Source: Candidatus Moraniibacteriota bacterium (GTDB lineage: Bacteria > Patescibacteriota > Minisyncoccia > Moranbacterales > UBA1568). From it: 64,000 nucleotides of DNA. The DNA lies in assembly GCA_016699975.1 (NCBI GenBank), contig CP064994.1, positions 554,167-618,166 of the forward strand, given 5' to 3'. Position numbers and translations under genes: made by a program. The notes under the pieces are model-generated. The model was not told the DNA's origin. It searched no databases and worked only from the letters and a program-made list of their open reading frames with translations. Of this stretch, positions 20,084 to 55,827 are shown one piece after another; the stretch's first letter is position 1; the number at the start of each line of letters is the position of its first letter.

Positions 20084-21187
20084 TTATCGTTTGAGGCGAA
20101 GGAGAAGCGATTCAAATACGTCTGCCGTATGATCGAAGGTAAAAGAGCGGCTGTGTTCGAGTGCGTTTTTTTGGAGCGTTGTGTAGCGATCTTTGTCTTC
20201 GAGCAGGGAGACGAGCTCTTTTGCGAGCGCCTCGGGGCTCGTATCGGTCAAGATTCCGGTTTCCCCGTCTTTCACGGCTTCGGTAAATCCATCGACCCGG
20301 TAGACGACCGAGGGTGTTCCCGAAGCGGCGGCTTCGATCACGACGAGGCCGAACCCTTCTTTTACAGAAGCGCTTGAGAGGATATGCGCGCACCGCAAAA
20401 GCTCTGCCTTTTTTTCTTCCGAGACAAAACCGAAAAATGTGATGTCGGCGTCGTCTTTATTCTCTTGCTCGAGCTTTTTCTTGTATTCGTCTCCGCCTCC
20501 TACGATCCAGAGGGCGAGGTTCGGAATCGTTTTTTTGGCGAGCGCATAGGCGGCGATGAGGTCACTCACCCCTTTCATCTTGGCGACTCGACCCACAAAG
20601 ATAATGGTAGGGCGTGTTTCCTTTTGGGCGTCTTCACTGCGGGCGATCGGCGTCAAGGTAATCGCTTCGGGGATAATGGCGATGTGGCGCGGAGAAATAC
20701 CAACCGATTCGAGATCGCGCTTGGTCGCTTCTGAGACGGTGAGAAATGGTGTTTTGCGGTAGGGAAGGAAGAAAAACTTTTCCAGCGTGTAGCCGATTCT
20801 TCCGATCGGAAAGGGAAACATCCGGAGCCATATTTCGCGCGCCACTTCGTGAATGAAGGCGACTTTCCGTACGCCTCGAGCGTAGAGTGGCGTCATAAAG
20901 GGGATGCCGTGAATCTGATCGACCACGATATCAAAGCGCTCTTTTCGAAGTTTCGTCCACCACAGAAGAAAAACCCACAAATGAACACCGAGCTTTTCAC
21001 CGCCTCTCCGAATGATGCGGTACCCGTCTCTCATTTCTTCGCGCTGTGCGCCTGGGAAGAAGGTGGTGACCAGGGTGAGGCGGTGCCCACGTAAGACGAG
21101 GCGCTTTGCCACTTCTTCTGTGACGACTTCCGCTCCGCCGGAGCGAGGGTTTTTGAGATCACGCCAATTGAGAAAGAGGAGATTCAT
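20084..21187 (-). CDS. Glycosyltransferase family 4
   Basis: GT4 N-domain plus EX7E motif VKEGFGLVVIEAAASGTPSVVYRVDG. Overlaps the upstream GT2 gene by 4 nt (21184-21187), suggesting translational coupling. Confidence 0.85.
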   Translation of the reverse strand: MNLLFLNWRDLKNPRSGGAEVVTEEVAKRLVLRGHRLTLVTTFFPGAQREEMRDGYRIIRRGGEKLGVHLWVFLLWWTKLRKERFDIVVDQIHGIPFMTPLYARGVRKVAFIHEVAREIWLRMFPFPIGRIGYTLEKFFFLPYRKTPFLTVSEATKRDLESVGISPRHIAIIPEAITLTPIARSEDAQKETRPTIIFVGRVAKMKGVSDLIAAYALAKKTIPNLALWIVGGGDEYKKKLEQENKDDADITFFGFVSEEKKAELLRCAHILSSASVKEGFGLVVIEAAASGTPSVVYRVDGFTEAVKDGETGILTDTSPEALAKELVSLLEDKDRYTTLQKNALEHSRSFTFDHTADVFESLLLRLKR

Positions 21188-22119
21188 CGCTTTTTTCGAA
21201 TGATGTAGAGCGGCCGGTTTTGCGTTTCAGTATGGATGTGCGCGATGTAGAAGGCGAGGAGCCCGAGAGAGACGAGCACGACTCCGACCAGAAAGAGAAT
21301 CAGGTTTGCAAGAATCGCGGGGCCCGAGAAGGAGAGTCCCCATACAAAAAGATAGCGGTCGAGCAGCATGACGATACCGAGAATGCTCGAGAGGATGATA
21401 ATCGTAATGCCGATATAGCCCGCGAGACGAAGAGGGAAAAGACTGTGTGCGACCAGGCTTTCGAGTGCGAGGGAGACAAGCTTTTTCATGTCGTAGGAAG
21501 CGGTGCCGTGGAGCCGATTGGGAGCGGTAAAGGGAATAAAGGCGCGGCGAAAACCAAGCCAATCGATAAGGCCACGCGTCATGCGGCTCCGCTCGGTGAG
21601 GGCGTTGAATTCGTCGGCGACACCGCGGTCAATAAGTCGAAAGTCGGTGGCACGCGGCACGATATCCGTTTGCGAGACGGCTCGGATCAGTTTGTAGAAG
21701 AGGCGCGAGCCCATGCGTTTGAGGCGCGTATCGCTCGCGTCGTTTTTGCGTACGCCGATCACCACTTCCGCGCCGTTTCGCCACTTCTCTATGAATTTCG
21801 GAATGAGTTCGGGTGGATGCTGCAAGTCAGCATCCATGGAGAGGATGAGATCGCCTGTTGCGGCGCGGATTCCCGCGGTGGTCGCCGCTTCTTTCCCGAA
21901 ATTTCGGGAAAAATCAAGAACGCGCACTGTTTCCGGATGGGCGTTTTCGAGATGCGTGAGTTGAGTGAGGGAGTCATCGCGACTTCCGTCATTCACGAAG
22001 ATTATTTCAAACGAGAGATCGGGACACGTCTTTGTGAGGACGTCGGAGACTCTTTCGAACAAGACGGGAACATTCTTCGCTTCGTTGTAGACGGGAACGA
22101 CGATGGAAATTCGAGACAT
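21184..22119 (-). CDS. Polyprenyl-phosphate glycosyltransferase, GT2 (DPM1/GtrB/ArnC-like) with C-terminal TM helices
   Basis: MSRISIVVPVYNEAKNV...FVNDGSRDDS...MDADLQHPPE plus 2 C-terminal TM helices. Start placed at Met 22119 (the longer ORF extends to 22257). Confidence 0.85.
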   Translation of the reverse strand: MSRISIVVPVYNEAKNVPVLFERVSDVLTKTCPDLSFEIIFVNDGSRDDSLTQLTHLENAHPETVRVLDFSRNFGKEAATTAGIRAATGDLILSMDADLQHPPELIPKFIEKWRNGAEVVIGVRKNDASDTRLKRMGSRLFYKLIRAVSQTDIVPRATDFRLIDRGVADEFNALTERSRMTRGLIDWLGFRRAFIPFTAPNRLHGTASYDMKKLVSLALESLVAHSLFPLRLAGYIGITIIILSSILGIVMLLDRYLFVWGLSFSGPAILANLILFLVGVVLVSLGLLAFYIAHIHTETQNRPLYIIRKKR

Positions 22120-22253
22120 CAAGAAATCAGTCAGATGGATTAGAGGGCAGCCGTTTCTCTTTCGAGCGGATTGGAGTTTGGAAAAACTCAATACCCGACG
22201 ATTCAGTGTACCGAATTTTTGTCCGAGGGGCAAATATTTTCTTGAAAAAAATG

Positions 22254-23612
22254 TCAATGATTTTTGATATTTCTGTATTTTTCAAAGACGAACACGAGTA
22301 AAAATGAAACAAAGAGAACAACGTTTGCAATGAGTTCGGCCCGAACGATCGAATGAATCGTGGGGTGAGTGGTGAAGAAGCTCGCGATGAAAGCGACGGT
22401 CACAAAGGTGTAAGGAACGAGAAACAGTCGAGAGAGTTTTGCAAGAAAATGGTAGAGAAAAACTGTTGAGAGCGATCCGAAAAACATAGCGAGACCGAAT
22501 TCTGGAAGAAAGGGCGCCGCCAAGAGGTAGCGTGTTCCAAAGAGAATGGTTACGACCGGCACGGAGAAAAATAAAAAGAGGAGGAGGCAGACGGCGCCTG
22601 TTCCGCCCACAATCATGAAGGCGAGCGCGAGGAGTCGGTCAGCTTTCTTTCGTGCGCGTTTGGGCGCGTCCGCACGTTCCGCGGGTGCATCTTCGGGGAG
22701 GGTGGCGGCGGTCATGGGGAGGAGCACGGTGACGATGGCACTCCCGCCATAGGTGATGATCCGTCCCATAACGGCGACGGCACTCAAAATTCCCGCATCC
22801 CCCGCCTCGAGAACGCGTTTTCCGAGAACCACATCAATATTGCCGAAGAGGGCAAGGAGAAGGGTTGCACCAAAGGCGACAGGAAAGTACGGCGGAACAT
22901 TTCGGAAGGTGTTTCGGAGGGCGGCGACTTTCGAAAGGGGCTCCTGGGGATCTTTCGAGCGAAAAGAGAGGAATGATGATGAGGGGAAAAATTTCCGGAG
23001 AGCGGGAACTGAGAGGAGATAACGATGGGCAAGGAGAGTGCTTCCGACGAGCGCCATACTGACTCCCCCTGCTCCGAAACCGATCAGCACAAGCGCGACA
23101 CTCCCGAAAAGTTTCGTGACGGTGGTGATGATGCTTGAAAGTGAGAGTGCGCGAAAGTTTTGGAGTCCCTGCGCGACACTCATCGAAATGGAGATCGCGA
23201 TCGAGGCGGGAACAACGAGTGACAAAAGGAGGAGTGGCGTCGTATGAATTTCAAAGAAACGAGCGGCAAGCGGAGCGAGTGCGGCGAGGAAGGCGGTTGA
23301 CGCGATGCCGAGCGCGAATGAAACGCGACGAGTGAGCCGAACGAGCGATCGTATTTCTTCGTGCTTCCCGGCATTTTGAAGGACGGCGATTCGTTGCGTG
23401 AGGAGGATGCGAAGCGCGGCAAGCGGTGCGGTGAGGAGCATGGAGAGCGTGACGAGGAGCGCCACTTCGCCGTATTCCTCGGGAGAAAGGAGGCGCCCCA
23501 GGACGAGATTGAAGGCGTAGTTCAAAACATTCGTGGTCATGCTCCCTATGAGCACGATCGCACTTCCAGAGAGAAACGGATTCTCTCGAAAAAAAGTGAG
23601 CAGTCGTTTCAT
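22254..23612 (-). CDS. Oligosaccharide flippase (Wzx/MOP superfamily, polysaccharide biosynthesis protein)
   Basis: About 12-14 TM helices. N-terminus ...VLIGSMTTNVLNYAFNLVLGRLLSPEEYGEVAL... is typical of PF01943. Start taken at MKRLLTF (23612). Confidence 0.75.
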   Translation of the reverse strand: MKRLLTFFRENPFLSGSAIVLIGSMTTNVLNYAFNLVLGRLLSPEEYGEVALLVTLSMLLTAPLAALRILLTQRIAVLQNAGKHEEIRSLVRLTRRVSFALGIASTAFLAALAPLAARFFEIHTTPLLLLSLVVPASIAISISMSVAQGLQNFRALSLSSIITTVTKLFGSVALVLIGFGAGGVSMALVGSTLLAHRYLLSVPALRKFFPSSSFLSFRSKDPQEPLSKVAALRNTFRNVPPYFPVAFGATLLLALFGNIDVVLGKRVLEAGDAGILSAVAVMGRIITYGGSAIVTVLLPMTAATLPEDAPAERADAPKRARKKADRLLALAFMIVGGTGAVCLLLFLFFSVPVVTILFGTRYLLAAPFLPEFGLAMFFGSLSTVFLYHFLAKLSRLFLVPYTFVTVAFIASFFTTHPTIHSIVRAELIANVVLFVSFLLVFVFEKYRNIKNH

Positions 23613-23733: not shown

Positions 23734-24684
23734 ATGGAATCTCATGCGATGCGACCGAAATACTCGGTAGTGGTGCCTTTGTATAACGAAGAAGGCAATG
23801 TGAAAGCGCTTCACGAGCGCATCGTTTCGACGCTCCGTGCCTTGGGCGCGCCTTTTGAAATTCTCTTTGTTGACGATGGATCGAAAGACGAAACGGTTGC
23901 TACGTGCCGTACCCTCTCTCCCCTCACGCTTATTTTGCTGCGGAAAAACTTTGGTCAGAGCGCGGCATTTGATGGGGGATTCAAGCAGGCGGCGGGAGAC
24001 ATTATCATCACGATGGACGGTGACCTTCAAAACGATCCTGCGGATATTCCGAATCTCCTGAAGAAACTCGAAGAAGGATATGACGTGGTCGCTGGTTGGC
24101 GCGTGAAGCGCAAAGACTCGCTTGAGAAAATTATTTTTTCGCGTGTCGCGAATATGCTTCGATCGATTCTCATTCACGATGGGATTCATGATTCGGGCTG
24201 TAGTCTCAAGGTGTACCGACGCGAGTGCTTCGAGGACTTCGACCTCTTCGGCGAGATGCACCGTTTTATTCCCGCGCTTCTTGAAATTCGCGGTTTTCGA
24301 GTCGCCGAAATTCCTGTTTCGCACCATCCGCGTGTTCACGGTGTGACAAAATACAACTGGAAGCGCGGCGTAAAAGGATTTGTCGACATGCTCGCCGTGT
24401 GGTTTTGGCGAACGTATTCGCATCGGCCCGTCCACCTCTTCGGCGGCTCCGGCTTTTTCTTGTCCGTCGTGGGATTTGGTATTCTCTCGTGGATGTTCAT
24501 TGAGAAGGTGTTTTTCGGTGCGTCTCTTTCCGAGCGAATCTGGCCGATGATAGGGATCTTCCTCCTCCTTGCGGGAATACAACTTTTCATTTTTGGCCTC
24601 ATGACGGATATGCTCGTTCGCTCTTACTATCGAGGACGCGGTGCGATGAATTACACGATTCGGTCGGTGATCGAGCAAAGGTAA
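23734..24684 (+). CDS. Polyprenyl-phosphate glycosyltransferase, GT2 (GtrB/DPM1-like)
   Basis: YSVVVPLYNEEGNV...FVDDGSKDET...MDGDLQNDP plus C-terminal TM helices. Confidence 0.85.
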   Translation: MESHAMRPKYSVVVPLYNEEGNVKALHERIVSTLRALGAPFEILFVDDGSKDETVATCRTLSPLTLILLRKNFGQSAAFDGGFKQAAGDIIITMDGDLQNDPADIPNLLKKLEEGYDVVAGWRVKRKDSLEKIIFSRVANMLRSILIHDGIHDSGCSLKVYRRECFEDFDLFGEMHRFIPALLEIRGFRVAEIPVSHHPRVHGVTKYNWKRGVKGFVDMLAVWFWRTYSHRPVHLFGGSGFFLSVVGFGILSWMFIEKVFFGASLSERIWPMIGIFLLLAGIQLFIFGLMTDMLVRSYYRGRGAMNYTIRSVIEQR

Positions 24685-26244: not shown

Positions 26245-26410
26245 AGTGTTTCTCTCTTTCTGCTGATTCGGGAGCCACATGAAAGCGCGTCACCTTCTGG
26301 AAGAGCGTGGAGAAGAAAGAGAATACCCGCTTCACTCAAGAGCCCGAAGGCGAGACACAAGAGAATGGGCAAGATGAAAAGCTGAAACTCTCAACTCTCT
26401 TTCAAGAACC

Positions 26411-27582: not shown

Positions 27583-27611
27583 AAATTTTTTGTGAGGATT
27601 GTCTCAATCGT

Positions 27612-28591: not shown

Positions 28592-28635
28592 TTTTTTTCT
28601 GATTACCGTCCGGTATTTTTTGAGAGCGGCGAAAG

Positions 28636-28669
28636 GCAAAAACACCCGAGACTTTTCGAGTGTTTTTTT
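28636..28669. terminator. Bidirectional intrinsic terminator between convergent genes
   Basis: aaaaaCACCCGAGActtTTCGAGTGttttttt: about 8-bp stem with one mismatch, A-run upstream and T-run downstream. Confidence 0.45.
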
Positions 28670-28713
28670 GTTGCAAAGCTCTGGTGAAGGGGCGAGCGTT
28701 TCCGTTTTTTTCT

Positions 28714-30612
28714 TTATTGCTCTTCTTGAAAGATGCGATCAACGCGTATCACTTTCACAAAGTTAACGCTTCGGTTTCCGAGTATCTCGGTAAATTCGGC
28801 AGGCGCCTTTTCGTATGCGTCTTTAAAATTGATTGGAACAGAAGTGGAGAGCCACATGTTCACGGTTTTTCGCTTGCGACCCGTCGAGAGTACCACATAG
28901 TCGGGAATATTTTCTTTGAATCGCTTCTGATTGAAACTCACTGAGCAGTCTCCGATAAACGCTGCGCATACCGCGCCTTTGTCGGACCACACGCGAATAT
29001 TTCTCGCGTCGGGAAGGGCATTCAAAAATTGTGCGGCTTCGTAACTTCCGTCGCCCATATCTTTGAAATTCAGGATGAAGCGTTTCGGGAGAAGTGAGGA
29101 AGCGGACGCAAGATAGTGGGGCCGAACTGACACAAGATTCGCAGCGAGAATGAGGATCAAAAGCCCGGGCAAGAAGACGCGGGCGAGAAGCAACCGAGTG
29201 GAATGGAATTGCGCGCATCGCTCGCTCAGGAATTCGAGCAGTATCGCCGCTCCGATTCCGGAAAGAATGAATGCGAGGGGAAAAAGGGCGATTTGGTAGC
29301 GAACGGTCGCAATGACATAGTTTGCGGTTGAGCCGAGATAGTAGAGAAGGATGAAGAACGTGAAAGCAAGAACGGGGACCTGATATCGGCCGAAGCGGTG
29401 CTTGAAAAAGAGCAGCGTGCCGAGTGTGCCCAGCAAAAGAAAGAGTGCGATCGGGTGTATGCCGAAGATGAGGCTGTACACATCAGCAAGGAGGCTTCCG
29501 AAATTTTTGAGAAGGGTTGCACTCGCTTCGGAATTCTTCGGAGACATGACAAAGGCTTCGAGGTCGAACCACCGCATTCCAAGCCATGTATTCGCGAGTG
29601 TGAGCAAGATGAGACCGAAAAAAATACCAAGAATTGCTTTTGAGAGAGTGGAGCGAAAGCGCGAAAAGATTCGAAGAACACGTTCCGAAACGACGCCACG
29701 GAGAAGAAAAGCATCGACCAGGAGAAAGAGAATGACGCCCGCAAAAAGTGGCCAGGTGCTTTTGAAGGCCGCCGAGAGGAGGGTGCCTTCGAGAATCATT
29801 TCTGGCTTTACCCAGGTCGCGGGGTAGAGAAGGGTAAAGGTGAGAATCGATACCAAGACGAGAATGAAGAGATCACGGAGGGTATTTTTGAGGAATTGCT
29901 GAGGATCGGGTTTTTTCTCGGCAAAAAGGTATTCGAGAAACGGAAACAGGAGAAAGAAAACGAATAGAATATTCGCCACATATTTGGTAAGGAGGGAGAG
30001 CCCGGTCGAGATGCCCGCGATGATGAGATATTTTCGTGACGATTTTGTACCGGAGGCGAGGCGCGCGAGAATGGCGATCGGAAGAAAAATAAAGAGGAGC
30101 GAGTCCGGATTGATGATGAGTGACATGCCGAGAAGAATCGGGGAAAGGCCGATCAGGATGGTCGAAAAAATCGCGACCGTGGCACCGATTGCGGCTCGTA
30201 TGAGGAGATAGAAAACAGGGAGAGCGAGCAGGGAAAAGAGATAGAGAGGAAGACGAAATGCGATATTGATCGTGTCGAAGGCGGCGAGTTCTTGGGGCGT
30301 TTTCGGTTCTTCCCGGAGCGGCTTGTAGGGCATTGGGTCTATCTTGAGGAGGCCGAAGCCGGAAAGCTCCGCGACGGTAATGCCGGGCTTGTCGTTGATA
30401 TCGGTATTCTTCCATTTTGCACTTCGAACAGCGCGCCAAAAGTCAGGTGTTCGCTCGAATGTCCAGTAGGGTTCATCGACGGCGGAATAGGTGCCAAGTC
30501 GGGGAAGTCCGAAGGCAAGGTTGATAGCGATGACGACAACGAGAATGAAAACATGCGCCGCATTTTTGCTCCGAAGCGCTGCAAGGATTCTCATCGAAAA
30601 GGGGGAGTTCAT
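28714..30612 (-). CDS. ArnT/PMT-like glycosyltransferase (GT39/GT83-type, GT-C fold) membrane protein
   Basis: 632 aa, at least 12 TM helices. N-terminal loop ...YSAVDEPYW...DKPGITVAELSGFGLL... resembles PMT_2/ArnT motifs. Soluble C-terminal about 150 aa. Confidence 0.65.
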   Translation of the reverse strand: MNSPFSMRILAALRSKNAAHVFILVVVIAINLAFGLPRLGTYSAVDEPYWTFERTPDFWRAVRSAKWKNTDINDKPGITVAELSGFGLLKIDPMPYKPLREEPKTPQELAAFDTINIAFRLPLYLFSLLALPVFYLLIRAAIGATVAIFSTILIGLSPILLGMSLIINPDSLLFIFLPIAILARLASGTKSSRKYLIIAGISTGLSLLTKYVANILFVFFLLFPFLEYLFAEKKPDPQQFLKNTLRDLFILVLVSILTFTLLYPATWVKPEMILEGTLLSAAFKSTWPLFAGVILFLLVDAFLLRGVVSERVLRIFSRFRSTLSKAILGIFFGLILLTLANTWLGMRWFDLEAFVMSPKNSEASATLLKNFGSLLADVYSLIFGIHPIALFLLLGTLGTLLFFKHRFGRYQVPVLAFTFFILLYYLGSTANYVIATVRYQIALFPLAFILSGIGAAILLEFLSERCAQFHSTRLLLARVFLPGLLILILAANLVSVRPHYLASASSLLPKRFILNFKDMGDGSYEAAQFLNALPDARNIRVWSDKGAVCAAFIGDCSVSFNQKRFKENIPDYVVLSTGRKRKTVNMWLSTSVPINFKDAYEKAPAEFTEILGNRSVNFVKVIRVDRIFQEEQ

Positions 30613-30756
30613 GCGGATACTCTAGCAAGTTTTCGTCCCTGCGACAATCGGCATCGAGGACCAGGCTCTCTAAAGTTGGCAGTCGGAAAAATTTCTTCTA
30701 TGATGGGTCCATGTGAGTTTTTTGTTGGAAGATGAGCGGGGAATATTTGATGTGAT

Positions 30757-32274
30757 ATGGCGCAATCCGGAAATACCAAAAACAAAGAGGATCGAAAGCG
30801 ACTGCTCTCCTCACGTTCTCTTCGAAAGTTTGTAGGCTCTGGGGATCAACCGGCTCTTGTGGGTATCTTTGCTGTTCTTCTCCTTGGATTTGTTTTTGCA
30901 GTATTTGAGATTTTCACAACGTCGTCGTTTTCCGTCGATCCTCCGGCACTTGCCAAAGAGCGTGAACGCAAGAGGTTCGCAGCCGATGTGACGACTCCGA
31001 TGCCCGAGGTGCCGTTTTCAATGCCGAAAATCGTCGAGCCCTCGTTTCCTGATCGCGACTGTCCCATTACGGAATTTGGTGCGGTTCCGGGCGGAAAAGT
31101 TTTGAATACCGAAAGCATTCGAAAGGCGATTGCATCGTGTGAACAAAAGGGCGGTGGGCGCGTAGTTGTGCCGAAAGGTCTCTGGCTTTCGGGCGCGATT
31201 CATTTAAAAAGCAATATCAATCTCCATGTTGAGGCTGGCGGAAAAATTCTTTTTTCAAATGATCTTTCGGAGTATCTTCCCCCGGTCTTTTCGCGATTCG
31301 AGGGTATTGAGCTCATGAACTATTCGCCGTTTATCTATGCGAGAGATGCAACGAATATTGCGATAACGGGAGACGGAGAGCTCGATGGGAATGGGAAAAT
31401 GTGGCAAGACTGGAACAAAGTTCAAGAGCCTTCGCTTCTTCGGCTTGAGAAGCTCGCCGACCAAGGAGCACCGCTTGCGGAGCGGAACTTCGCTCTTGCT
31501 GAAGATGCGCTGCAGCCGTCCTTTGTGCAGTTTGTGCGTTGTCGGAATATTCTTCTCGAAGATATAAAAATATCGAGGAGTCCGAGTTGGACGATTCACC
31601 CTGTGTATAGTTCCGATATCACGGTTCGTCATGTGGAAGTGTATACCGATGCGAGGAATACCGACGGTATTGCGATCGACTCGTCGCGAAACGTCGTTGT
31701 TCATGACTCAATTTTCCGCGCGGGAGACGATGCGATCGTGATCAAATCAGGAAAAGATAGAGATGGACTTCGGGTTCGAGAGGCATCGGAAAATATTGTT
31801 ATTCATGACGTGACGGTCGAAGATGGTCATGGCGCGATTGCCTTCGGAAGCGAAATGTCCGGCGGCATACGCAATGTCTTCGTCAAAAATCTGACAGCGA
31901 CTCGTGCGGACTTTGGCATTCGGTTCAAAAGTATGCGCGGGAGAGGGGGAGTGATCGAGGATATAACGATTGAGAACATGAAGATGGGACGATCGGTCTA
32001 TGAAGGCATCCAAGTTGATATGGATTACGGAACGCCGCTTCGCCCCGACGACACTTCGCTTTCTCCAATTTTTCGCGATATCACGGTTCGCAATCTTTCT
32101 ATCGATCGTGCGCGTACTGGTTTGAGAATTGTGGGACTCCCTGAAAGTCCGGTTGAAAATCTTATACTCGAGAACATTTCGATACAAGCTGAGAAAGACG
32201 GTGTGGCGCCAATTCATCTCAAAAACGAACAGTTCCGAAATGTGAATATTATCGTTCAGGATAGAAAGAAATGA
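30757..32274 (+). CDS. Glycoside hydrolase family 28 (polygalacturonase-like right-handed beta-helix) with N-terminal membrane anchor
   Basis: ...GAVPGGKVLNTESIRKAIASCEQKGGGRVVVPKGLWLSGAIHLKSNINLH..., NTDGIAIDSSRNVVVHDSIF, AGDDAIVIKSG, HGAIAFGSEMSGGIRNV: GH28 motifs (NTDG, G/QDD, G-HG, RIK-like). Confidence 0.8.
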   Translation: MAQSGNTKNKEDRKRLLSSRSLRKFVGSGDQPALVGIFAVLLLGFVFAVFEIFTTSSFSVDPPALAKERERKRFAADVTTPMPEVPFSMPKIVEPSFPDRDCPITEFGAVPGGKVLNTESIRKAIASCEQKGGGRVVVPKGLWLSGAIHLKSNINLHVEAGGKILFSNDLSEYLPPVFSRFEGIELMNYSPFIYARDATNIAITGDGELDGNGKMWQDWNKVQEPSLLRLEKLADQGAPLAERNFALAEDALQPSFVQFVRCRNILLEDIKISRSPSWTIHPVYSSDITVRHVEVYTDARNTDGIAIDSSRNVVVHDSIFRAGDDAIVIKSGKDRDGLRVREASENIVIHDVTVEDGHGAIAFGSEMSGGIRNVFVKNLTATRADFGIRFKSMRGRGGVIEDITIENMKMGRSVYEGIQVDMDYGTPLRPDDTSLSPIFRDITVRNLSIDRARTGLRIVGLPESPVENLILENISIQAEKDGVAPIHLKNEQFRNVNIIVQDRKK

Positions 32275-32311
32275 GGCAGTGGTTGGCCCTTAGAAAGTTT
32301 TTCCGATTCGG

Positions 32312-34309
32312 ATGAGACCTCTTCTTCGATGTTTCTCTCTCGAAGTTAAAAAATGCTCTTCTTTTTTATTGATGAGCGGGGGCGGGGGAGTCCGAAATCC
32401 GATTTTTCTTACATTGTTTATGGTTTCTTTCGGGAAACGATTTCTCTCTCCCAAGCTTGTGACGATACTTCTTCTCTGTGGTATCGTCGGCTCCGGATTC
32501 TTCCTTCGATTCGTACACTTTGACGAGTGGCTCTACTTTAAACTCGATCAGTCTCGGGATGCGATGCTTCTCTCGAGGGCAGTAGAGGAAGGTCCCCGAT
32601 ATCTGCCGCTTCTTGGTCCACGAGTCGGAGCAGTGACGCTTTCCGAAGGGCTTCTTCGCACCGGTCCTGCCTATTACTATTTGCAGTATCTTTCGGGCAC
32701 TCTTTCGCGCTCTGTCGAGCCACCGGTCTTTGCCTACCCGGATCTTTTTTTCGGCACCGCTTCTCTTGTCATCCTCTTTTTCTTTTCGAGACTTTTTTTT
32801 CGTCGTTCAACCTCGCTTCTTGTTGTCGCGCTTCTCTCTGGCTCATTTCTGGCGATCCAATATTCACGCTTTGCCTGGAATCCAAACCCGCTCCCATTTT
32901 TTTTGATGGTGTCTTTCTTCGGACTCCTTCGTTTTTTGCATGCTCCTTCTGGGTGGAAGCGATACGGATTTCTTCTTATTTTTTTTGTCGGCTTTTCGGG
33001 AGCGGCACAACTTCACTATTTCGGCATGATGAGTCTTCTCGGGATTATTACTCTCTCTTTGGGATGGCACTTTGCTCTGTGGAAACCTGACTCGTGGAGG
33101 CGTATTTTTTCTCGATCGGCTTTCCGCTCGGCACTCCCCGTTTTTGGCATGGGTTTTCTTATTCTCCTTTTCTTCTTTTCGCCCATGATTATAAGCGACG
33201 TCATGCGAGACGGGCAGAATACCAGAAACTTCTTCGAAGCCTTGATCGCAAAGCAAGATGCGAAGCCTCTCACGAACCGTCTTGAAGAAGCATTCTTCGA
33301 GACTCCGCGGTACTTGTGTCTTCTTTCGACGGGATTCTGCCTGAAAGAAGGCGAGCCCGAAAATATCCCCCCTCTTCTTTTGACGCTTCTTCTTTTGGGT
33401 GCGGGAGGAGGAATCGCTTTCCAGAGGCTGAGAGGAATGTCCGAAGGCATTCGCAAGGATTTCTTGCGGCTTCTCCTGGTGTGGATCGTAGTTTTTTGCG
33501 CGCTTTCCATTCCTGTTGCCTTTCAATTGCGACCGAGATTTTTTCTTGTCGTGCTTCCGATCCCGTTTCTCTTCTTTGGTCTTGTATTTGAATTTCTCCG
33601 GGAGCGATGGAACGCCTCTGGCCTTGTCTTCGGCACACTCCTCTTCATTCTTCTTCTTACGATGAATCTCTTCGGTGTCTCAAAATGGTTTCTTGAGCAA
33701 GCGGCTGCGCAGCGAGGCGATGCGCCCGTTTCGCGAACGCTGATTCTCAAAACCAAGGATGGCGTGACACTCGGACAACTGAGGCGTGCGGCGCACTTCA
33801 TGAAAACGCGCCTCCTTCCGGAAGAGCGCCTCTATTTTTATGTGAAGCCGGAGCACATCGCTCCCATAGAATATCTTCTTCGACTTTCTGCGAAACAACA
33901 GCCGGAACTGGTTTTTCGGAATATGCAAAAAGTGCCAACCGATCCCAAGGCGCGATTTTTTGCAATTCTCGCAACGGGTCGTGATCCCGAAGTGTCGCTC
34001 CGCGAGAAATTTGGCCAACCCGTAACGATTCGAGATGCCCAGTCGGTCGGGCAGATAACGGTCTTCGAAATCGATTTCCCACAACGGATGATCGATCCGG
34101 CATTCGAGTGGTTGAACGCGGCCCCGCTCGAATCGAGTGCTCTTTTGCTCGACGAAAAACGAAAGTCAAGCGATCGCGTTTTCTGGGGAGAAGCTGTCTC
34201 CCGCTTCTTGAATCGAAATGAAAAGACCCCGCCCTCTCATGACCCCTCTTTTCCTGAGGGGACGGAAGAAGATTTGTCGAATGAAACTTCCGAAGTGAAT
34301 ACTCCCTGA
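32312..34309 (+). CDS. GT-C-fold membrane protein, ArnT/PMT-like, tandem paralog 1 of 3
   Basis: Shared motifs with paralogs 2 and 3: F..DQ(S/A/I)RDA..., LLGP..GG..R.GP.YYY, RF(A/S)WNPN, QLH(Y/F/T)F. The true start may be an internal Met (32372 or 32420). Confidence 0.6.
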   Translation: MRPLLRCFSLEVKKCSSFLLMSGGGGVRNPIFLTLFMVSFGKRFLSPKLVTILLLCGIVGSGFFLRFVHFDEWLYFKLDQSRDAMLLSRAVEEGPRYLPLLGPRVGAVTLSEGLLRTGPAYYYLQYLSGTLSRSVEPPVFAYPDLFFGTASLVILFFFSRLFFRRSTSLLVVALLSGSFLAIQYSRFAWNPNPLPFFLMVSFFGLLRFLHAPSGWKRYGFLLIFFVGFSGAAQLHYFGMMSLLGIITLSLGWHFALWKPDSWRRIFSRSAFRSALPVFGMGFLILLFFFSPMIISDVMRDGQNTRNFFEALIAKQDAKPLTNRLEEAFFETPRYLCLLSTGFCLKEGEPENIPPLLLTLLLLGAGGGIAFQRLRGMSEGIRKDFLRLLLVWIVVFCALSIPVAFQLRPRFFLVVLPIPFLFFGLVFEFLRERWNASGLVFGTLLFILLLTMNLFGVSKWFLEQAAAQRGDAPVSRTLILKTKDGVTLGQLRRAAHFMKTRLLPEERLYFYVKPEHIAPIEYLLRLSAKQQPELVFRNMQKVPTDPKARFFAILATGRDPEVSLREKFGQPVTIRDAQSVGQITVFEIDFPQRMIDPAFEWLNAAPLESSALLLDEKRKSSDRVFWGEAVSRFLNRNEKTPPSHDPSFPEGTEEDLSNETSEVNTP

Positions 34310-34397
34310 ATCGGACTCGAGACAGAAAGGATGATTCTCTTTGTTTCAAATTTATGACAGGAAGAAGTTTTCAAGTATCTTTCATTGTTTCCATTGA

Positions 34398-36076
34398 ATG
34401 AGATCGCCTATGAACCCACATGAAGAAAATGGTTTGCGATACAAAACGATATTTTTCTGGGGAATATTTTTTGTGATGCTTTTTGGCGCCGTATTTGTGC
34501 GAACGACGCACTACGAAGAATGGATGATTATTAAGTCCGATCAGATTCGCGACGCGATGGTGTCTCTCAAGGTGCTTGAAAACGGATTCGGAGAACTCCC
34601 GCTTTTTGGCCCGAGAGCCGGCGGGACACACTTGCGGCTTGGTCCAATATTCTACTATTTTCAAACTGCTTCAGCTCTGCTTTTCCATTCCGCTTCTCCA
34701 GGAGTGCTTGCGCTTCCCACGCTTCTTTTTTCGCTTCTCTCGATCCCGCTCTTTTTTCTCATGGCGAGAAGGCTCTTTTCCCGGAATCTTTCTTTGATTC
34801 TCACGATCGTGTTTTCGTATGGATTCCTCGCGATTGAGCATGCTCGTTTCTCCTGGAATCCGAATTCCACAACTTTTTTTACCCTTCTCTTTCTCTACTC
34901 GTTTCTGCGGATTCTGGCGGACGATACGCCGAAAAAACTGTGGTGGTATGCAGCGCTCGGTCTTTCTTATGGTGTTGTTTCACAGCTCCACTTCACGGTT
35001 CTTTTGGCACTTCCTTTGTTTATTGCGTTCTTTGCGATTTTTCGACCGAAGCGAGTGTGGCGCGTTTTGTCGTGGAAGGGAGTCGCGATATTTTTGGGCG
35101 TCATTCTCCTTCTCTACACGCCTGTCTTTGTAAGTGAAGTCCTGAGCGGGGGGAAGAATGCGTCGGAAACCTTTGCCGCGGTTGCGGAGAAGGGATCCGA
35201 GAAAACACTGATCGGAAATGTTCGTCGTGTCCTCAAAAATTTCGGCGAATATTTTTTCCGTATCGGTTTCGGATATTTCGGAGGGCCGCGCCCGTTTCAG
35301 TATGCGGGGATCGCGCTCCTGGGGAGCGGTCTCTTTCTCTCTCTCTTCTTATTTCGAAAAGAGAAAGACGAATCTCGTCGGGATGTTTTTTTGGCGATTC
35401 CGATTTTGCTTGCAACGTTTTTCTCCTCTTCCTTCCGATTGCAACGACGGTGGACAAACCGCGATTTTTTCTCCCGCTTCTCTTTGTGCCGACCATTTTT
35501 TTCGGTATGATAACGTGTCTTACATTCTCCGGAAAAATCCGGTTCTTCCCCACGATTCTTGCTGCGCTCTTCCTGGGAGCGAGCCTCGGATCCAATATGT
35601 TCTTTACCTACCAGTGGCTTTCCGAGATCCGTCATTCAACACATCGGTACGTCTCTGCGAAAAAGGATACCGTGGTACTCAAAATGAAAAAGGATGACAT
35701 GTGGTGGTCTTGGGAACAAATTCACGGCGCGGTCGAATATATGATACGAGATTGTCCCAATGAAAATATTCTCGTACAGTACAAAGGGCAGGCGGCCGAC
35801 TTTATGCACACCACGCTCTACGCCTTTCGTCTCGCGGGAGACGATCGTATTCGTCGATCGACCACCTACGAAGGACCAAGTTTTTGCCGCTACGCTCTCA
35901 CCAAGTCGAAGCCGGGTGAAAATCCCGATGACGATCAGTGGGATATCGGCGATCTGCGTATTCTCGCTCTCGAGAAGCGCGGAGGGAGTTTCGATACCAG
36001 TATCTATGGAAAAGGAGAGTCAGAAGAAGAGCCTTCGAAAAACAAATTCGAGTACTGGAAGGACGTTACCCGCTAA
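34398..36076 (+). CDS. GT-C-fold membrane protein, tandem paralog 2, frame broken at T5 35417-35421
   Basis: Frame A runs to ...ILLATFF. Frame B continues LLFLPIATTVDKPRFFLPLLFVPTIFFG, which parallels paralog 1 (...AFQLRPRFFLVVLPIPFLFFG). Adding one T joins them into about 559 aa. Confidence 0.6.
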
Positions 36077-36190
36077 AGCAGCGATCAGAAAGTGAAGCAT
36101 TGTTTGGATTCCAAATTTTTTTCATTCCAAGAAATTTTGACGCGAGCGACACAACACTCATAAGAAAGAAGAGAAGTAAAAGCGGTCTCT

Positions 36191-37810
36191 TTGAACATTT
36201 TTTCTATGCATGATTTTTTTTCGCGCTTTCGAAAGGGAGGCATTCGTTTCGATTCCACTCAAGTGGCGTTCATTGCTATTCTTTTTGTCGGAGCATTTCT
36301 CCGGATGTATGAATTTCACGATTGGCTTCGATTTAATCCCGATCAGGCTCGAGATGCGATCGTTGCCTTCGACATGACCACGGGAAAGATCCCGCTTTTG
36401 GGGCCGGTTGCCGGCGGAACCGAGTTTCGATTGGGGACTGTTACGCACTACTTCTCTTTCCTCTCGGGGACGCTCTTCGGCTTTTCTCCGAGTGCCTTGG
36501 CGTATCCGGATCTTTTCTTCTCCATCCTGTTTCTCCCGCTCCTCTTTTTGCTGGTATCGAGAATGTTTGGGACGCGTATCGCACTTTCGGTGATGCTGCT
36601 CGCTGCTCTCTCGGGCTATATGGTGCGCTATGGTCGTTTCGCGTGGAATCCGAACTCCATGCCGTTTTTTACGACGCTCTTTTTCTTGTCGGCGCACAGC
36701 CTTCTTTTTTCTGAAGGAAGGAAGAAATTGCTGTGGGCTGCGCTCTTTGGGATATCAATAGGCATCGGCGTGCAACTCCATACCTTTCTCTTGGTGCTCC
36801 TGCCGATTCTCGCGCTCTTCGTTTTCGTTTTTCTTTTCTTGCAGAAAAAACTTTCTGTTCTCGTGGCAGTCATTTCTCTTTCATGTGCAATATTTCTCAA
36901 TATCCCGCAAATCATTTCCGAGGTTCAAACGAAAGGGATGAATACGAACGCTTTCTTTAATGGAGTAGGAAACAGAACTGAAAGTACGCGCACAGTGAGT
37001 GAGCGGGTGGGACGAGACGCGCTGTGTCATGTGCGATCGAACGCCTTTATTCTGACGAGTCTTGGCCACAGCGATAACTGTAATCGGTTTATCGCACTCA
37101 TGAAAAGGAAGTTTCCCATGACGCATCCGCTTGATATTGTGCACGCGATTCTCGAGATTGTGTTTACCGTTGGAGGAATATTTCTCCTCGGCTTCTTCGC
37201 ATGGAAGGAAACGCGCCTCGAAAAGCGATTTCTCTTTGTCGGAGTGCTTGTATTCATGGTGGCGCTCTTTCTTCTTATCATCCCCGTTTCCAATGAAATC
37301 GCAATGCGGTATTTCTTAGCGTCCGCATTTGTTCCCTTTGTGCTTCTCGGCGCGTGGGGAAAATTTCTCTTCGAGCGCGGGAGGTGGGGTATTGCGACGT
37401 TTGTTCTTTTTGTCTCACTCCTTCTCTTTTTGAACGCGCTTTTCTTGAAGAAAGAGGCAGCGCTCTTTGCGAGCGGTCGCGTGAGCGACGCAGATATGGC
37501 CATTCTCGGTGAGACGGAGCCGCTTGCCGAGTTTCTCTCGCGGCATACTCCTTCTCAAGGAACCGCGCATCTTATCGGCATGAGGAGCTATCGAAAGCGT
37601 TTTCACAAAGCGCTTGCGTATCCTCTTCACCTCGAGGGGAAGAAGCTTCTTCGCTTCGAAAAAAAGGGAATGCCCGAAAAATCAGGGCCCGTTTTTCTTA
37701 TTCGGAAGAAAACAAAATCGTACGATGCCATGAGTGAAATCGACGGCATGCCAATTCTTGATCGAAAAACGAGCGGGCGCGTGAGTGTTTTCCTTCTGAG
37801 ACGAGAATGA
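36191..37810 (+). CDS. GT-C-fold membrane protein, tandem paralog 3
   Basis: 539 aa with the same motif set (NPDQARDA, LLGPVAGGTEFRLG, RFAWNPNS). Its stop overlaps the SET gene start (ATGA at 37807-37810). Confidence 0.65.
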   Translation: MNIFSMHDFFSRFRKGGIRFDSTQVAFIAILFVGAFLRMYEFHDWLRFNPDQARDAIVAFDMTTGKIPLLGPVAGGTEFRLGTVTHYFSFLSGTLFGFSPSALAYPDLFFSILFLPLLFLLVSRMFGTRIALSVMLLAALSGYMVRYGRFAWNPNSMPFFTTLFFLSAHSLLFSEGRKKLLWAALFGISIGIGVQLHTFLLVLLPILALFVFVFLFLQKKLSVLVAVISLSCAIFLNIPQIISEVQTKGMNTNAFFNGVGNRTESTRTVSERVGRDALCHVRSNAFILTSLGHSDNCNRFIALMKRKFPMTHPLDIVHAILEIVFTVGGIFLLGFFAWKETRLEKRFLFVGVLVFMVALFLLIIPVSNEIAMRYFLASAFVPFVLLGAWGKFLFERGRWGIATFVLFVSLLLFLNALFLKKEAALFASGRVSDADMAILGETEPLAEFLSRHTPSQGTAHLIGMRSYRKRFHKALAYPLHLEGKKLLRFEKKGMPEKSGPVFLIRKKTKSYDAMSEIDGMPILDRKTSGRVSVFLLRRE

Positions 37811-38562
37811 GTCCAATATCTTCACCAATTTCTCCTGTTGAGCGAATCACTCCGGCGCTTTTACGGATACGGCCTTCTCAGAAATTTGGCGGTATTGGCG
37901 TGTTTGCTCTTCGTGATATTCCAAAAGGAACGATTCTCTCTCGTGCTGCCTTTCTTCCGAAAGAGCGTTTTCTTTCGTGGAAAGCGTTTCGAAAATTGGA
38001 TGAGATTACCCAGGAATTTGTGCGAAACTTCTGTGCGCACACAAAGCGGGGCGTCTCTCTGCCAGCCGATCTCAGTACGTTGCCCATCGTGTTTCATATG
38101 AATCACCACTGCCGTGGGAACGTGGGCTCCGATGAAGCGGGAAATTTTCTTGCGATTCGAAAAGTGCGCTGCGGCGAAGAGTTGTGTTTCGATTACGCCC
38201 TCGTTATTTCGGATCCTAAATATCGGTTGATATGTCGTTGTGGTGACCCATTGTGTCGAAAAGTAATAACCGGAAACGATTGGAAGGATCCCAATTTTCT
38301 GGAGAACAATTATCGGTATATGTCTCCTGTGCAACGCGCGCTTGTCGATGCGGCGCTTCACCTTGACTCAGAACCTTCTTCCGAATTCTCCATTTCCGAT
38401 CCTTCTCTTCACAGAAGAGGAGGTCGTTCTGCGCTTGAGGCGAAGAGGAAAGACAAATCGGCTCGGAAAAAGTTTGTTGAATTTTTCGCCTCCAATCGGA
38501 TCCTACGTTGTTTCGGGCGTACTTTTTTGTACGTGAAAGTTACGGGCGTGAATCTTCGTTGA
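37807..38562 (+). CDS. SET-domain protein (putative protein-lysine methyltransferase) with basic C-terminal tail
   Basis: GGIGVFALRDIPKGTIL...FHMNHHCRGNV...CGEELCFDYA...CRCGDPLCRKVI: SET core (G.G.FA, NHxC, ELxxDY) plus post-SET Cys cluster. Translationally coupled to the upstream GT-C paralog. Confidence 0.75.
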   Translation: MSPISSPISPVERITPALLRIRPSQKFGGIGVFALRDIPKGTILSRAAFLPKERFLSWKAFRKLDEITQEFVRNFCAHTKRGVSLPADLSTLPIVFHMNHHCRGNVGSDEAGNFLAIRKVRCGEELCFDYALVISDPKYRLICRCGDPLCRKVITGNDWKDPNFLENNYRYMSPVQRALVDAALHLDSEPSSEFSISDPSLHRRGGRSALEAKRKDKSARKKFVEFFASNRILRCFGRTFLYVKVTGVNLR

Positions 38563-40066: not shown

Positions 40067-40125
40067 AAGTGGTGGAGTGTTCTACTTTCCGATCAGGTAT
40101 TTAACAACACACAAAGAGGTGCTTC

Positions 40126-40779: not shown

Positions 40780-40796
40780 AACAAGTTTGAAACAAG

Positions 40797-41423: not shown

Positions 41424-41654
41424 GCGGATATGCTAGCATTTTCAGCGCGGTTTGGGTATATGGTATGCTCTCTGAGGAAGGGGTTACATGGGCCAGGTGT
41501 CGGGTTTTTTGGGAACGATGGAGTCCCATATCCCCCTTTCCTTTGAGGGAGGGTACGCTCTCTTTTCTCAATATGTTCGACATTCTCCGTTGAGAGCGCT
41601 TCGTTCGAAAAAGATTTTTATTGTTACAAAATACGAAACCCTTGTTTTTCGAAT

Positions 41655-50629: not shown

Positions 50630-51580
50630 TTACTTGGTGTACCGGCGCTTCTTCAGAAAATACATTTGCTCCTCAAGAAGCCGGCGATTCGACTTCACCA
50701 TGTCGGCGAGGAGTGCAAAGACGACGAATTGAAGTCCGACGACAAAGGCGAGCGCACAGAAGAAGAGGTAGTTGCGGTACGGAGAAATTTTGAAGTCCTG
50801 AAAATAGAATCTGAGAAAGACAAGAAAAAGGAGCGCTGAAAATCCCAATAGAACAAACCCTGGAATCCCGAAGAACTTCATGGGGCGTACATCGCGAACA
50901 GCACGCACGATGATGCGCGAACTTTGGCGAATATACTTCGTAACACTTTTTGTCATTTTGGATTTTCGCTCGGCAAAGTAGGTGACTTCGACCGGCACCC
51001 ACAGGATTCGCAAGCCCTTCCCAATTGCATCAATGATGACTTCTTGTGTGTAGGTAAAGTTTTCAAGGAGACTTAGTCTCATGAGCGATTCTCGGCTATA
51101 GGCGCGGAAACCGCAGGTCAGGTCGTGAATCGGCGTCTTCAAAAATTTCGAAATAAGGTGCGCCGCCAAACGGTTGAGTCTCTCTTTGAGAAGTGGAATA
51201 TTTTTGGCAGCATATTTTCCGAAGCGATCGGCGCTCACGATATCCGCCGTTCCTGAGAGAATGGGTTCGATGAGTTCTGGAATATCTTCGGGATCAAATT
51301 GCCCGTCCGCGTCGATATTTACCATGATGTCGGCGCCAACTTCGAGAGCCGCCTCGACCGACGTGCGAAACGCGCGCCCGAGTCCCAGGTTGTGGGGATG
51401 CGAGAAAACGCGCGAAGCACCGGCCTCTCTCGCAATTTTTCCAGTACCATCTTTCGATCCGTCATCCACGACATGGATCAGGACTTCTTCGATTCCCCGA
51501 AAAAATTTCGGGATTTTTTTAATCGTCTCTCCGATTTTTTCGGCTTCGTTGTAAGCGGGAATATTGATAACGAGTTTCAT
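50630..51580 (-). CDS. Glycosyltransferase family 2 (polyprenyl-phosphate sugar synthase-like) with C-terminal TM helices
   Basis: MKLVINIPAYNEAEKI...VVDDGSKDGT...IDADGQFDPED plus 2 TM helices. Confidence 0.85.
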   Translation of the reverse strand: MKLVINIPAYNEAEKIGETIKKIPKFFRGIEEVLIHVVDDGSKDGTGKIAREAGASRVFSHPHNLGLGRAFRTSVEAALEVGADIMVNIDADGQFDPEDIPELIEPILSGTADIVSADRFGKYAAKNIPLLKERLNRLAAHLISKFLKTPIHDLTCGFRAYSRESLMRLSLLENFTYTQEVIIDAIGKGLRILWVPVEVTYFAERKSKMTKSVTKYIRQSSRIIVRAVRDVRPMKFFGIPGFVLLGFSALLFLVFLRFYFQDFKISPYRNYLFFCALAFVVGLQFVVFALLADMVKSNRRLLEEQMYFLKKRRYTK

Positions 51581-55820: not shown

Positions 55821-55827
55821 AAGACGT

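Follow-up and report, generated by a model that had tools for sequence, protein, structure and literature searches.

A 64-kb stretch of DNA from Candidatus Moraniibacteriota (the window, to which all coordinates refer) carries a gene for a glycoside hydrolase of family 28 (GH28) beside four genes for glycosyltransferases of the GT-C fold, here named GTC0 to GTC3. The gene neighbourhoods described below show that GH28 is genetically coupled to GT-C enzymes, up to fusion with an enzyme of the GTC0 type. This neighbourhood and the fusions suggest that a surface glycan is built and trimmed jointly. The coupling is the most informative signal of the region and lay partly outside the emphasis of the original prediction, which had described a GH28 gene, three polytopic membrane proteins on the same strand and a divergent fourth gene. 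A listing of the open reading frames (ORFs) and their translation confirmed this layout, which is given here together with the calls on L004, an independent short-read assembly from another sample (L-numbers denote related loci or contigs).

28714..30612, minus strand: GTC0, GT-C protein of PMT/PMT_2 type, 632 amino acids (aa), or 626 aa as called on L004; divergent from GH28
30757..32274, plus strand: GH28 glycoside hydrolase, 505 aa; Pfam Glyco_hydro_28
32312..34309, plus strand: GTC1, longest ORF 665 aa; the call on L004 starts at ATG 32372 and gives 645 aa
34398..36076, plus strand: GTC2, 559 aa after repair; present here as two ORFs, 34398-35510 and 35450-36076
35418..35422, plus strand: T5 homopolymer run, the point at which the GTC2 frame is broken; T6 in L004
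36191..37810, plus strand: GTC3, 539 aa from TTG 36191 or 534 aa from ATG 36206

The GH28 protein scored 116.9 bits against the Pfam model Glyco_hydro_28, which has a cut-off of 22.9 bits. Over residues 82-486 it matched the exo-galacturonosidases of PDB entry 5olp and of Thermotoga (3jur) with E values of about 6e-86 to 7e-86. The closest NCBIfam model was the alpha-D-galacturonidase BT4155 (NF049892), with 346.5 bits, which is below its cut-off of 800 bits. The catalytic motifs are N301-T-D303, G323-D324-D325, G357-H358-G359 and R389-F-K391; across 21 related GH28 proteins D303, D324, D325 and K391 are invariant, while H358 occurs in 19 and R389 in 17 of them. The N-terminus has a signal anchor with a hydrophobic segment at about residues 34-52, and all 21 relatives have such a segment. 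The Pfam and PDB matches and the anchor bear out what had been predicted, a membrane-anchored hydrolase of the GH28 type with a beta-helix. As judged from these features, the protein is predicted to be an extracytoplasmic beta-helix with intact catalytic residues, that is, a competent exported enzyme.

A GT-C gene lies within 400 bp of every one of the 21 GH28 genes in the non-redundant loci, and it is of the GTC0 type for 13 of them; this adjacency is biased, which takes from its weight, since most of the loci were collected for their GTC3-type gene. Look-ups seeded with GH28 itself are unbiased. They returned a PMT/PMT_2 gene in the same locus in seven out of seven cases, from at least five genomic contexts; in five cases the two genes are directly adjacent and in the remaining two they are 0.35 kb (L081) and 1.6 kb (L084) apart. 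The surroundings of GH28 in L081 and L083 are unlike those in the window, with genes for ribosomal proteins and IMPDH in one and for FtsW and RRF in the other, and the divergent PMT-GH28 pair of L083 represents the only glycan genes there. Furthermore, in L079 the GT-C gene overlaps the start of GH28 by 11 nucleotides (nt).

The tightest association was found in two proteins from the list of GTC0 homologs, P0474 and P0478, which come from independent sources and are about 85% identical, as read off the two sequences. Each is a protein of 1060 aa, in which a GT-C enzyme of the GTC0 type is fused to GH28. The GH28 domain follows directly after the GT-C part with no transmembrane segment between them, and the catalytic D, DD, H and R-x-K residues are kept. 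The gene of the P0474 fusion occupies positions 10001-13183 of L085, and seven tandem GT-C genes run divergently from it. A further PMT_2 gene and a YdjC-like gene come after the fusion gene; altogether this locus has nine GT-C genes. We found no description of the pairing or fusion of GH28 with GT-C enzymes, or of large GT-C arrays, in a literature of limited coverage; the literature also yielded nothing relevant on the candidate phyla radiation (CPR), Moranbacteria or Patescibacteria in combination with GT-C, GT39, polygalacturonase or ArnT.

Some syntenic loci, L003 for instance, have no GH28, so that it is dispensable for GTC1-3. This absence counts against the coupling and speaks for a different explanation, namely that GH28 is a nutritional pectinase, which scavenges plant polygalacturonate and lies near GT-C genes without functional meaning. 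The protein is indeed about 45% identical to ordinary bacterial GH28 exo-polygalacturonases of other phyla, and its closest relatives in PDB and NCBIfam are pectin-degrading enzymes. A scavenging role does not account, however, for a GT-C gene beside or near GH28 in every one of the GH28-seeded look-ups, for the overlap of the genes in L079 or for the two natural fusions; in addition, no genes for sugar uptake or uronate catabolism were seen adjoining GH28 in the window. We therefore regard a purely nutritional role as very improbable.

The identity of the four membrane proteins was examined with profiles and with a structural model. The gathering thresholds of Pfam are 26.1 bits for PMT_2 (PF13231) and 22.7 bits for PMT (PF02366). 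GTC0 exceeded both, with 41.2 bits for PMT_2 and 35.8 bits for PMT. GTC1 reached 23.4 bits for PMT, which is marginal, and 18.4 bits for PMT_2, which is below the threshold. The N-terminal piece of GTC2 (34.5 bits) and GTC3 (27.5 bits) exceeded the threshold of PMT_2 and gave no match to PMT. None of the four has a Pfam match to a MIR domain; bacterial PMTs are not known to have this domain either, so that its absence does not exclude a bacterial GT39 enzyme. With scores of 18.6 bits (GTC2) and 17.4 bits (GTC3) against the ArnT equivalog model NF009784, which has a cut-off of 567 bits, the proteins are not ArnT orthologs. Sequence searches against PDB with GTC3, with a profile of 58 GTC3 sequences and with GTC0 gave no significant match; the GTC3 profile against solved Pmt sequences resulted in an E value of 0.43.

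GTC3 was modelled with AlphaFold2 from 58 homologs, and the confidence of the model is high (predicted local distance difference test score, pLDDT, 92.3; predicted template modelling score, pTM, 0.91). The top match of this model in Foldseek was ArnT (5f15), with an E value of 6e-8 over the full length (539 versus 541 aa). The template modelling (TM) score between the two is 0.52 in both directions, while transporters of the major facilitator superfamily (MFS) scored only about 0.11. Because of this difference the transporter alternative is refuted, and on the strength of the predicted structure we regard the assignment of GTC0-3 to the GT-C fold as secure. An unrelated transporter family had been named in the original prediction as the finding that would overturn it; the fold match is to ArnT and not to MFS, and the ArnT/PMT-like identity proposed for all four membrane proteins is upheld by Pfam, by profile comparison and by the fold of the GTC3 model. 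Fold and profile scores do not separate GT39 from GT83, and the fold does not set these two apart from other CAZy families either. Homologs are named glycosyltransferase family 39 protein by NCBI and ArnT-like by JGI, and the GTC proteins are best described as a Moraniibacteriota-specific branch of PMT_2-type GT-C enzymes.

All four proteins have an acidic motif in the first extracytoplasmic loop. In GTC0 this is the classical DE pair, D46-E47, after the first transmembrane helix; at the equivalent place GTC1-3 have DQxRD, with DQ instead of DE. Hence GTC0 combines the DE motif with a PMT match, which is marginal in GTC1 and missing in GTC2 and GTC3. Among the 58 homologs of the GTC3 family D55 is invariant and D51 at least 90% conserved, both within the motif D-Q-x-R-D; the other conserved positions are Q52 and R54, just after the first transmembrane helix, R149-F-x-W-N-P-N155 and Q195-x-H197. 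Within this family the acidic motif of loop 1 and RFxWNPN show little or no variation. Since all of these positions are retained in GTC1 and GTC2, the three proteins look catalytically competent as far as their sequences tell. The N-terminal motifs reported as common to the three paralogs were found in part: D-Q-x-R-D-A, (L/F)GP..G and RF(A/S)WNPN are present in all of GTC1-3 (DQSRDA and RFAWNPN in GTC1), but YYY occurs only in GTC1.

The prediction had also given the three paralogs as 665, about 559 and 539 aa long. ORFs of 665 and 539 aa exist, but the middle gene, GTC2, is split by a -1 frameshift in the T5 run. Addition of one T restores an uninterrupted protein of 559 aa, which aligns end-to-end with orthologs at 63% and 67% identity. 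L004, which is 99.76% identical to the window over positions 26307-41472, has T6 at this site and an intact GTC2 of 555 aa. The comparison of the window with L004 revealed 30 substitutions and 6 indels, and all six indels lie in homopolymer runs at the following positions.

26603, 27581, 27902, 35418, 38467 and 40730: homopolymer indels in the window relative to L004

These indels split three genes in the window, namely GT4 (26411-27582), LPG_synthase_TM (27612-28591) and GTC2, and they also alter the C-termini of a SET protein (37807-38562) and of the ORF 40126-40779. The fact that all indels relative to L004 are homopolymeric and that GTC2 is intact in L004 indicates that the window carries homopolymer-length errors, which are likely to occur throughout. 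GTC2 could otherwise be a true pseudogene in the strain of the window, or be phase-variable by slippage of the T run; the frame is broken at a homopolymer, and with 30 substitutions in 15 kb the window and L004 are not the same clone. However, six out of six indels in homopolymers, most of which split or alter otherwise conserved genes, are the signature of homopolymer-length sequencing error. The T5/T6 tract is short for phase variation and the remainder of GTC2 is undamaged, so that we consider a genuine defect or switch improbable. These errors break real genes in the window and are relevant to any annotation of it. A gene of the O-antigen-ligase/Wzy_C type at 41655-43042 is likewise in two pieces, the ORFs 41655-42332 and 42203-43042, and there is a G6 run nearby at about 42290; the gene lies outside the part covered by L004.

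Next we consider how the array arose. GTC1, GTC2 and GTC3 are clearly paralogs; pairwise BLASTP gave E values of 6e-36, 2e-25 and 6e-31 with identities of about 30-36%. The membrane parts are related in profile-profile comparisons with E values of 1e-86 to 1e-113, and hhalign aligned GTC1 to GTC2 and to GTC3 with a probability of 100%. GTC0 is related to the other three only remotely. In GTC3, 13 transmembrane helices are predicted, and its C-terminus forms an alpha/beta domain of about 110 aa (residues ~430-539). The C-terminal domains had been described as dissimilar. With ortholog-group profiles built from 80 related loci they turned out to be diverged but homologous in GTC1-3 (profile-profile probabilities of 98.9%, 97.4% and 88.3%; E values of 1e-17, 1.5e-11 and 3e-6), with 23-25% identity compared to 30-31% in the membrane part. 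By these comparisons the three proteins are homologous along their whole length. The real difference is in the tails; that of GTC1 has about 90 extra residues and is partly acidic. The C-terminal domain of GTC0 has no detectable relation to those of GTC1-3. As to the suggested check for a likeness to carbohydrate-binding modules (CBMs), the C-terminal domain of GTC3, modelled separately (pLDDT 91.2), is a small alpha/beta domain and has no resemblance to a beta-sandwich CBM, so that a CBM-like ectodomain is ruled out for it.

The GT-C family was searched exhaustively with HMMER over 1.84 billion cluster representatives. It comprises 320 clusters at E ≤1e-30 and 2057 at E ≤1e-3 and is thus modest in size and largely phylum-specific; named homologs of GTC3, GTC0 and GH28 come nearly all from Candidatus Moraniibacteriota/Moranbacteria and related Parcubacteria (CPR/Patescibacteria). 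A survey with the window proteins, using one genome per species, mapped 221 matching stretches in 68 loci. The conserved locus consists of 1-7 genes of the GTC1/2/3 type, often with 1-3 of the GTC0 type, before a convergent gene for a flippase of the MOP family. The order in L001 is LPG_synthase_TM, divergent GTC0, GH28, GTC1, GTC2, GTC3; L003 has the same order without GH28, followed by the Wzx, Tmk, RtcB, GT4, DUF6541, GT2 and dehydrogenase genes of the window.

The original prediction viewed the three genes as a lineage-specific expansion. This holds at the level of the phylum, with 1-7 genes per locus at a conserved position. The additional idea, that a recent tandem duplication produced them and that different CBM-like ectodomains diversify their specificity, is suggested by three adjacent paralogs on the same strand, by the variation in copy number from 1 to 7 between genomes and by the insertion sequence that replaced one paralog in L008/L010 relative to L009. 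It is contradicted by the degree of identity. The order GTC1-GTC2-GTC3 is kept in related genomes, where orthologs are 40-67% identical (GTC0 64% in L001 and 47% in L003; GTC1 55%, 53% and 44%), while the paralogs share only 27-33% among themselves. There are 229 genes that share their locus with a paralog, and for only one of them is the nearest relative found in that locus; the median identity is 35% to paralogs in the same locus versus 64% to the best homolog in another genome. Furthermore, the C-terminal domains of GTC1-3 are homologous and the modelled one is not a CBM. Both the recency and the unrelated ectodomains are therefore refuted, and we consider a recent origin extremely improbable. 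The fact that the nearest relatives are in other genomes and not in the same locus shows that the paralogs are old: they diversified early and have since been differentially kept, lost or shuffled. This old diversification with differential loss remains as part of the best explanation.

Some observations on the arrays of other genomes are added here. In L008 and L010, two assemblies of one species, an rve-family transposase (15733-16539) stands where a third assembly, L009, has a GT-C paralog of 550 aa (15917-17569); this is an example of ongoing array loss. A protein of 580-760 aa without a Pfam match recurs between genes of the GTC1 and GTC3 types, for example in L003 (7843-9993), with equivalents in L021, L023, L028, L030, L035, L059 and others; the window has none. 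Likewise, genes for Metallophos phosphoesterases are interleaved in the arrays of L002, L009 and L018, with none in the window. Six records titled 'uncultured Bdellovibrionales bacterium' (L012, L013, L016, L019, L036 and L042, corresponding to CAZJZN, CAZETL, CAYQPQ, CAZWWQ, CAZIBB and CAZEYB) carry a locus of the Moraniibacteriota type with protein identities of up to 64%; these labels are probably wrong.

The array is embedded in a large envelope-glycan region with GT4 and GT2 glycosyltransferases, a pyruvyl transferase, two proteins of the MOP/Wzx type, the split Wzy_C protein, a DUF6541 membrane protein and two sugar-nucleotide dehydrogenases. The following genes are candidates for the supply and export of donor sugars.

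21184..22257, minus strand: second GT2 resembling polyprenyl-phosphate glycosyltransferases (PgfS/ArnC type), 357 aa; PgfS 222.9 and ArnC 162.9 bits, full length
23734..24684, plus strand: ArnC-like GT2 polyprenyl-phosphate glycosyltransferase, 316 aa with C-terminal transmembrane helices; Glycos_transf_2 111.6 bits
24919..26244, plus strand: UDP-glucose 6-dehydrogenase, three UDPG_MGDP_dh Pfam domains; TuaD 527 bits
27612..28591, plus strand: LPG_synthase_TM membrane protein (MprF flippase-domain family), split by a T-run error at 27902; 326 aa and intact in L004
38540..40066, minus strand: flippase-like protein of the MOP/Wzx family, convergent with the array; Pfam Polysacc_synt, Polysacc_synt_3, MurJ and MatE
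50630..51580, minus strand: third such GT2 (AglJ/PpgS/dolichyl-phosphate hexose transferase type), 316 aa; AglJ 129 and PpgS 105 bits

Each of the three GT2 proteins matches polyprenyl-phosphate glycosyltransferases from end to end, with the membrane helices at the C-terminus included, and all the scores are below the equivalog cut-offs; for the protein at 23734-24684 the NCBIfam models ArnC (residues 7-314 of 316) and PgfS gave 177.5 and 144 bits. Its gene is directly upstream of the UDP-glucose 6-dehydrogenase gene, a pairing that recurs in L027, L065 and L078; the dehydrogenase scored 453.9 bits against the NDP-sugar dehydrogenase subfamily model, which is above the cut-off. At the far end of the locus the GT2 gene 50630-51580 is a conserved member, with synteny in L003 and many other loci. 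The order 'GTC3> <Wzx', that is, a MOP-family gene after the last GT-C gene, is found in most of the 68 loci, and the protein at 38540-40066 is a candidate flippase for lipid-linked donor or repeat units. LPG_synthase_TM is often a neighbour of GTC0-type genes.

Taken together, we think it rather probable that the region is part of a cell-envelope glycan locus, which encodes a multi-component extracytoplasmic glycosylation system with a coupled hydrolase and possibly handles uronic acids. By analogy with ArnC/ArnT, GtrB/GtrC, CsbB/YfhO and RgtE/RgtA-D, the cytoplasmic ArnC/DPM1-like GT2 proteins (23734-24684, 21184-22257 and 50630-51580) would load sugars onto polyprenyl phosphate. A flippase, for which the MOP-family protein 38540-40066 and LPG_synthase_TM are candidates, would move the lipid-linked sugar outward; in a three-component system that has been characterised, the donor is flipped by a protein of the MATE/MOP type (PMC11127046). 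A GT-C enzyme would then transfer the exported sugar to a surface glycan, and every paralog may serve a different position or acceptor. The underlying polymer probably comes from the Wzx/Wzy, GT4 and GT2 genes of the same locus, and the GH28 enzyme beside GTC0 may trim or remodel the same glycan.

The nature of the sugar is more speculative. It could be a uronic acid, galacturonic acid (GalA) or glucuronic acid (GlcA), derived from the UDP-GlcA of the dehydrogenase next to the ArnC-like GT2. This proposal is made because of the dehydrogenase neighbour, the alpha-GalA specificity of GH28, the inverting chemistry of GT-C enzymes and the precedent of the rhizobial Rgt proteins, which are ArnT-like GT-C enzymes that transfer GalA from bactoprenyl-phosphate-GalA (PMC7663294). 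An inverting GT-C enzyme could produce alpha-linked GalA from a beta-linked lipid donor, and this is the linkage that GH28 exo-galacturonidases cut.

Several points weigh against the proposed system and its sugar. A hydrolase and a transferase that act on the very same linkage would constitute a futile cycle. Among the scanned ORFs of the window, including the small ones, no UDP-glucuronate 4-epimerase (Pfam Epimerase) was found, so that GalA as the sugar is unsupported within the window. The same set of window ORFs contains no GtrA-type flippase; a GtrA_DPMS_TM gene was seen only in the related locus L080. The organism is uncultured.

It is also conceivable that the GT-C enzymes are protein O-glycosyltransferases, similar to PMT or PgfM1, which act on Ser/Thr-rich surface proteins such as pili, the S-layer or GH28 itself. 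The name glycosyltransferase family 39 protein given to homologs by NCBI, the score of GTC0 above the Pfam PMT cut-off together with its DE motif, and the similarity of GT2 21184-22257, which is greatest to PgfS with 222.9 bits, are in favour of protein acceptors; PgfS acts with GT-C enzymes in streptococcal protein O-glycosylation (10.1101/2024.05.05.592596). In contrast, the profile search against solved Pmt sequences was not significant, and the best full-length structural match is ArnT, which is a lipid glycosyltransferase. The genes are located among Wzx, Wzy, GT4 and sugar-dehydrogenase genes, which are typical of polysaccharide loci, and a glycan as substrate agrees better with the coupling to a hydrolase of glycans. 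Protein O-glycosylation is therefore somewhat unlikely in our opinion, albeit the readings with a protein and a glycan acceptor are not mutually exclusive.

The glycan reading can be extended into a bolder proposal, which we judge to be unlikely. The GT-C arrays and GH28 might form an extracytoplasmic assembly line that polymerises and edits an acidic wall polymer, similar to galacturonan or teichuronic acid, from polyprenyl-phosphate-uronic acid, in a manner which can be likened to the building of mycobacterial arabinan. The GTC0-GH28 pair or fusion would then be a bifunctional transferase-hydrolase of a kind so far undescribed, which sets the chain length or the end structure, and the product would be a major phylum-specific component of the envelope. 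If this is true, the polymer could mediate the attachment of these ultra-small bacteria to hosts.

A comparison with known systems underlines both similarities and differences. The array resembles ArnT and RgtA-D/RgtF (PMT_2, GT83), which work with ArnC and RgtE, in the PMT_2 matches above the cut-off and in the ArnC-like GT2 genes of the locus; the acidic loop-1 motif is at the start position of the ArnT model alignment. The use of bactoprenyl-phosphate-GalA by the Rgt enzymes (PMC7663294) would fit the GH28 and UDP-glucose dehydrogenase neighbours in the window. However, the proteins share no more than about 13% of their residues with ArnT, and the scores of 17-19 bits are far from the equivalog cut-off of 567 bits. 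A host from Moraniibacteriota would not be expected to make lipid A, so the acceptor must differ from that of ArnT. In the present loci GH28 is coupled to a cluster of four to nine paralogs, and we know of no such arrangement in Arn or Rgt systems.

The systems GtrA/GtrB/GtrC, CsbB/GtcA/YfhO, PgfS/PgfM1 and polyprenyl-phosphoribose synthase/MATE flippase/GT136 are multi-component transmembrane glycosylation systems. Like these, the window combines a GT2 lipid-sugar synthase, a flippase candidate and an extracytoplasmic GT-C enzyme next to genes of the Wzx/Wzy type (PMC8035078, PMC11127046). The differences are that those systems have one GT-C enzyme per locus whereas several paralogs occur here, that the window is without a GtrA-type flippase, and that a glycoside hydrolase is an integral and sometimes fused partner here. 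GT136 has a CBM (PMC11127046), unlike the small alpha/beta domain at the C-terminus of GTC3. With the PMT enzymes of GT39 the array shares the GTC0 score above the Pfam PMT cut-off, the DE in loop 1 and the GT39 names given by NCBI; it differs from them in that no MIR domain was matched, in the DQ in place of DE in GTC1-3 and in the non-significant profile comparison with Pmt.

Tandem GT-C paralogs with distinct acceptors, which build an extracellular wall polysaccharide from a polyprenyl-phosphate sugar, are also a feature of the mycobacterial embCAB and Aft arabinosyltransferases. The Emb proteins have about 1,100 aa and C-terminal CBMs, while the proteins of the array have 534-665 aa and a non-CBM domain of about 110 aa; no genes of an arabinose pathway were seen. 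Finally, BcsZ, PslG, PelA and AlgL are hydrolases or lyases which are encoded in biosynthesis loci of exopolysaccharides. They are similar to GH28 in that a secreted or membrane-anchored hydrolase is encoded with the biosynthetic machinery and presumably acts on its product. They belong to GH8, GH39, GH166 and PL5 and accompany synthase- or Wzy-dependent polymerases, in contrast to the GH28 and GT-C enzymes of the window.

Two features of the locus are unusual: large and conserved arrays of paralogs are found in very small genomes, and GH28 looks like an obligatory partner, to which a GT-C enzyme is even fused in some cases. CPR/Patescibacteria have tiny genomes with very limited biosynthesis, and their cell surfaces are almost uncharacterised. 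Since up to nine GT-C genes are nevertheless maintained at one conserved locus, the decoration of surface glycans must matter to their lifestyle. The recurrent pairing of GT-C and GH28, up to fusion, provides a concrete and testable functional link between two classes of enzymes, and it offers a handle for guessing the sugar chemistry (uronic acids) of an uncultured group.

A scan of 28500-40300 for promoters and terminators resulted in no more sites than in shuffled sequence; given this control, a promoter-like site at 30676-30704 in the divergent spacer between GTC0 and GH28 carries no weight. The gene for a bacterial SET-domain protein at 37807-38562 has its start 4 nt ahead of the stop of GTC3, with an ATGA overlap, and may be translated together with the array; L004 has this gene and the more distant syntenic loci lack it. 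A second bacterial SET-domain protein is encoded in the window at 55804-56328. The polytopic protein of 558 aa at 47657-49333, which has a weak match to DUF6541, is at a fixed place (Wzx, Tmk, RtcB, GT4, DUF6541, GT2) in many Moraniibacteriota and is perhaps a further large membrane enzyme, either a glycosyltransferase or a polymerase. An IS30-like transposase has left broken remnants at 53565-54576, with HTH_38 at 53565-53948 and a weak rve_3 match at 54136-54576. The G+C content drops to 33% at 14801-17968 (and 16001-18000), compared to a window average of about 48%. This segment is within an ORF of 1055 aa that has no Pfam match and adjoins the polysaccharide pyruvyl transferase gene at 17965-18678; the ORF may represent a horizontally acquired or fast-evolving surface gene.

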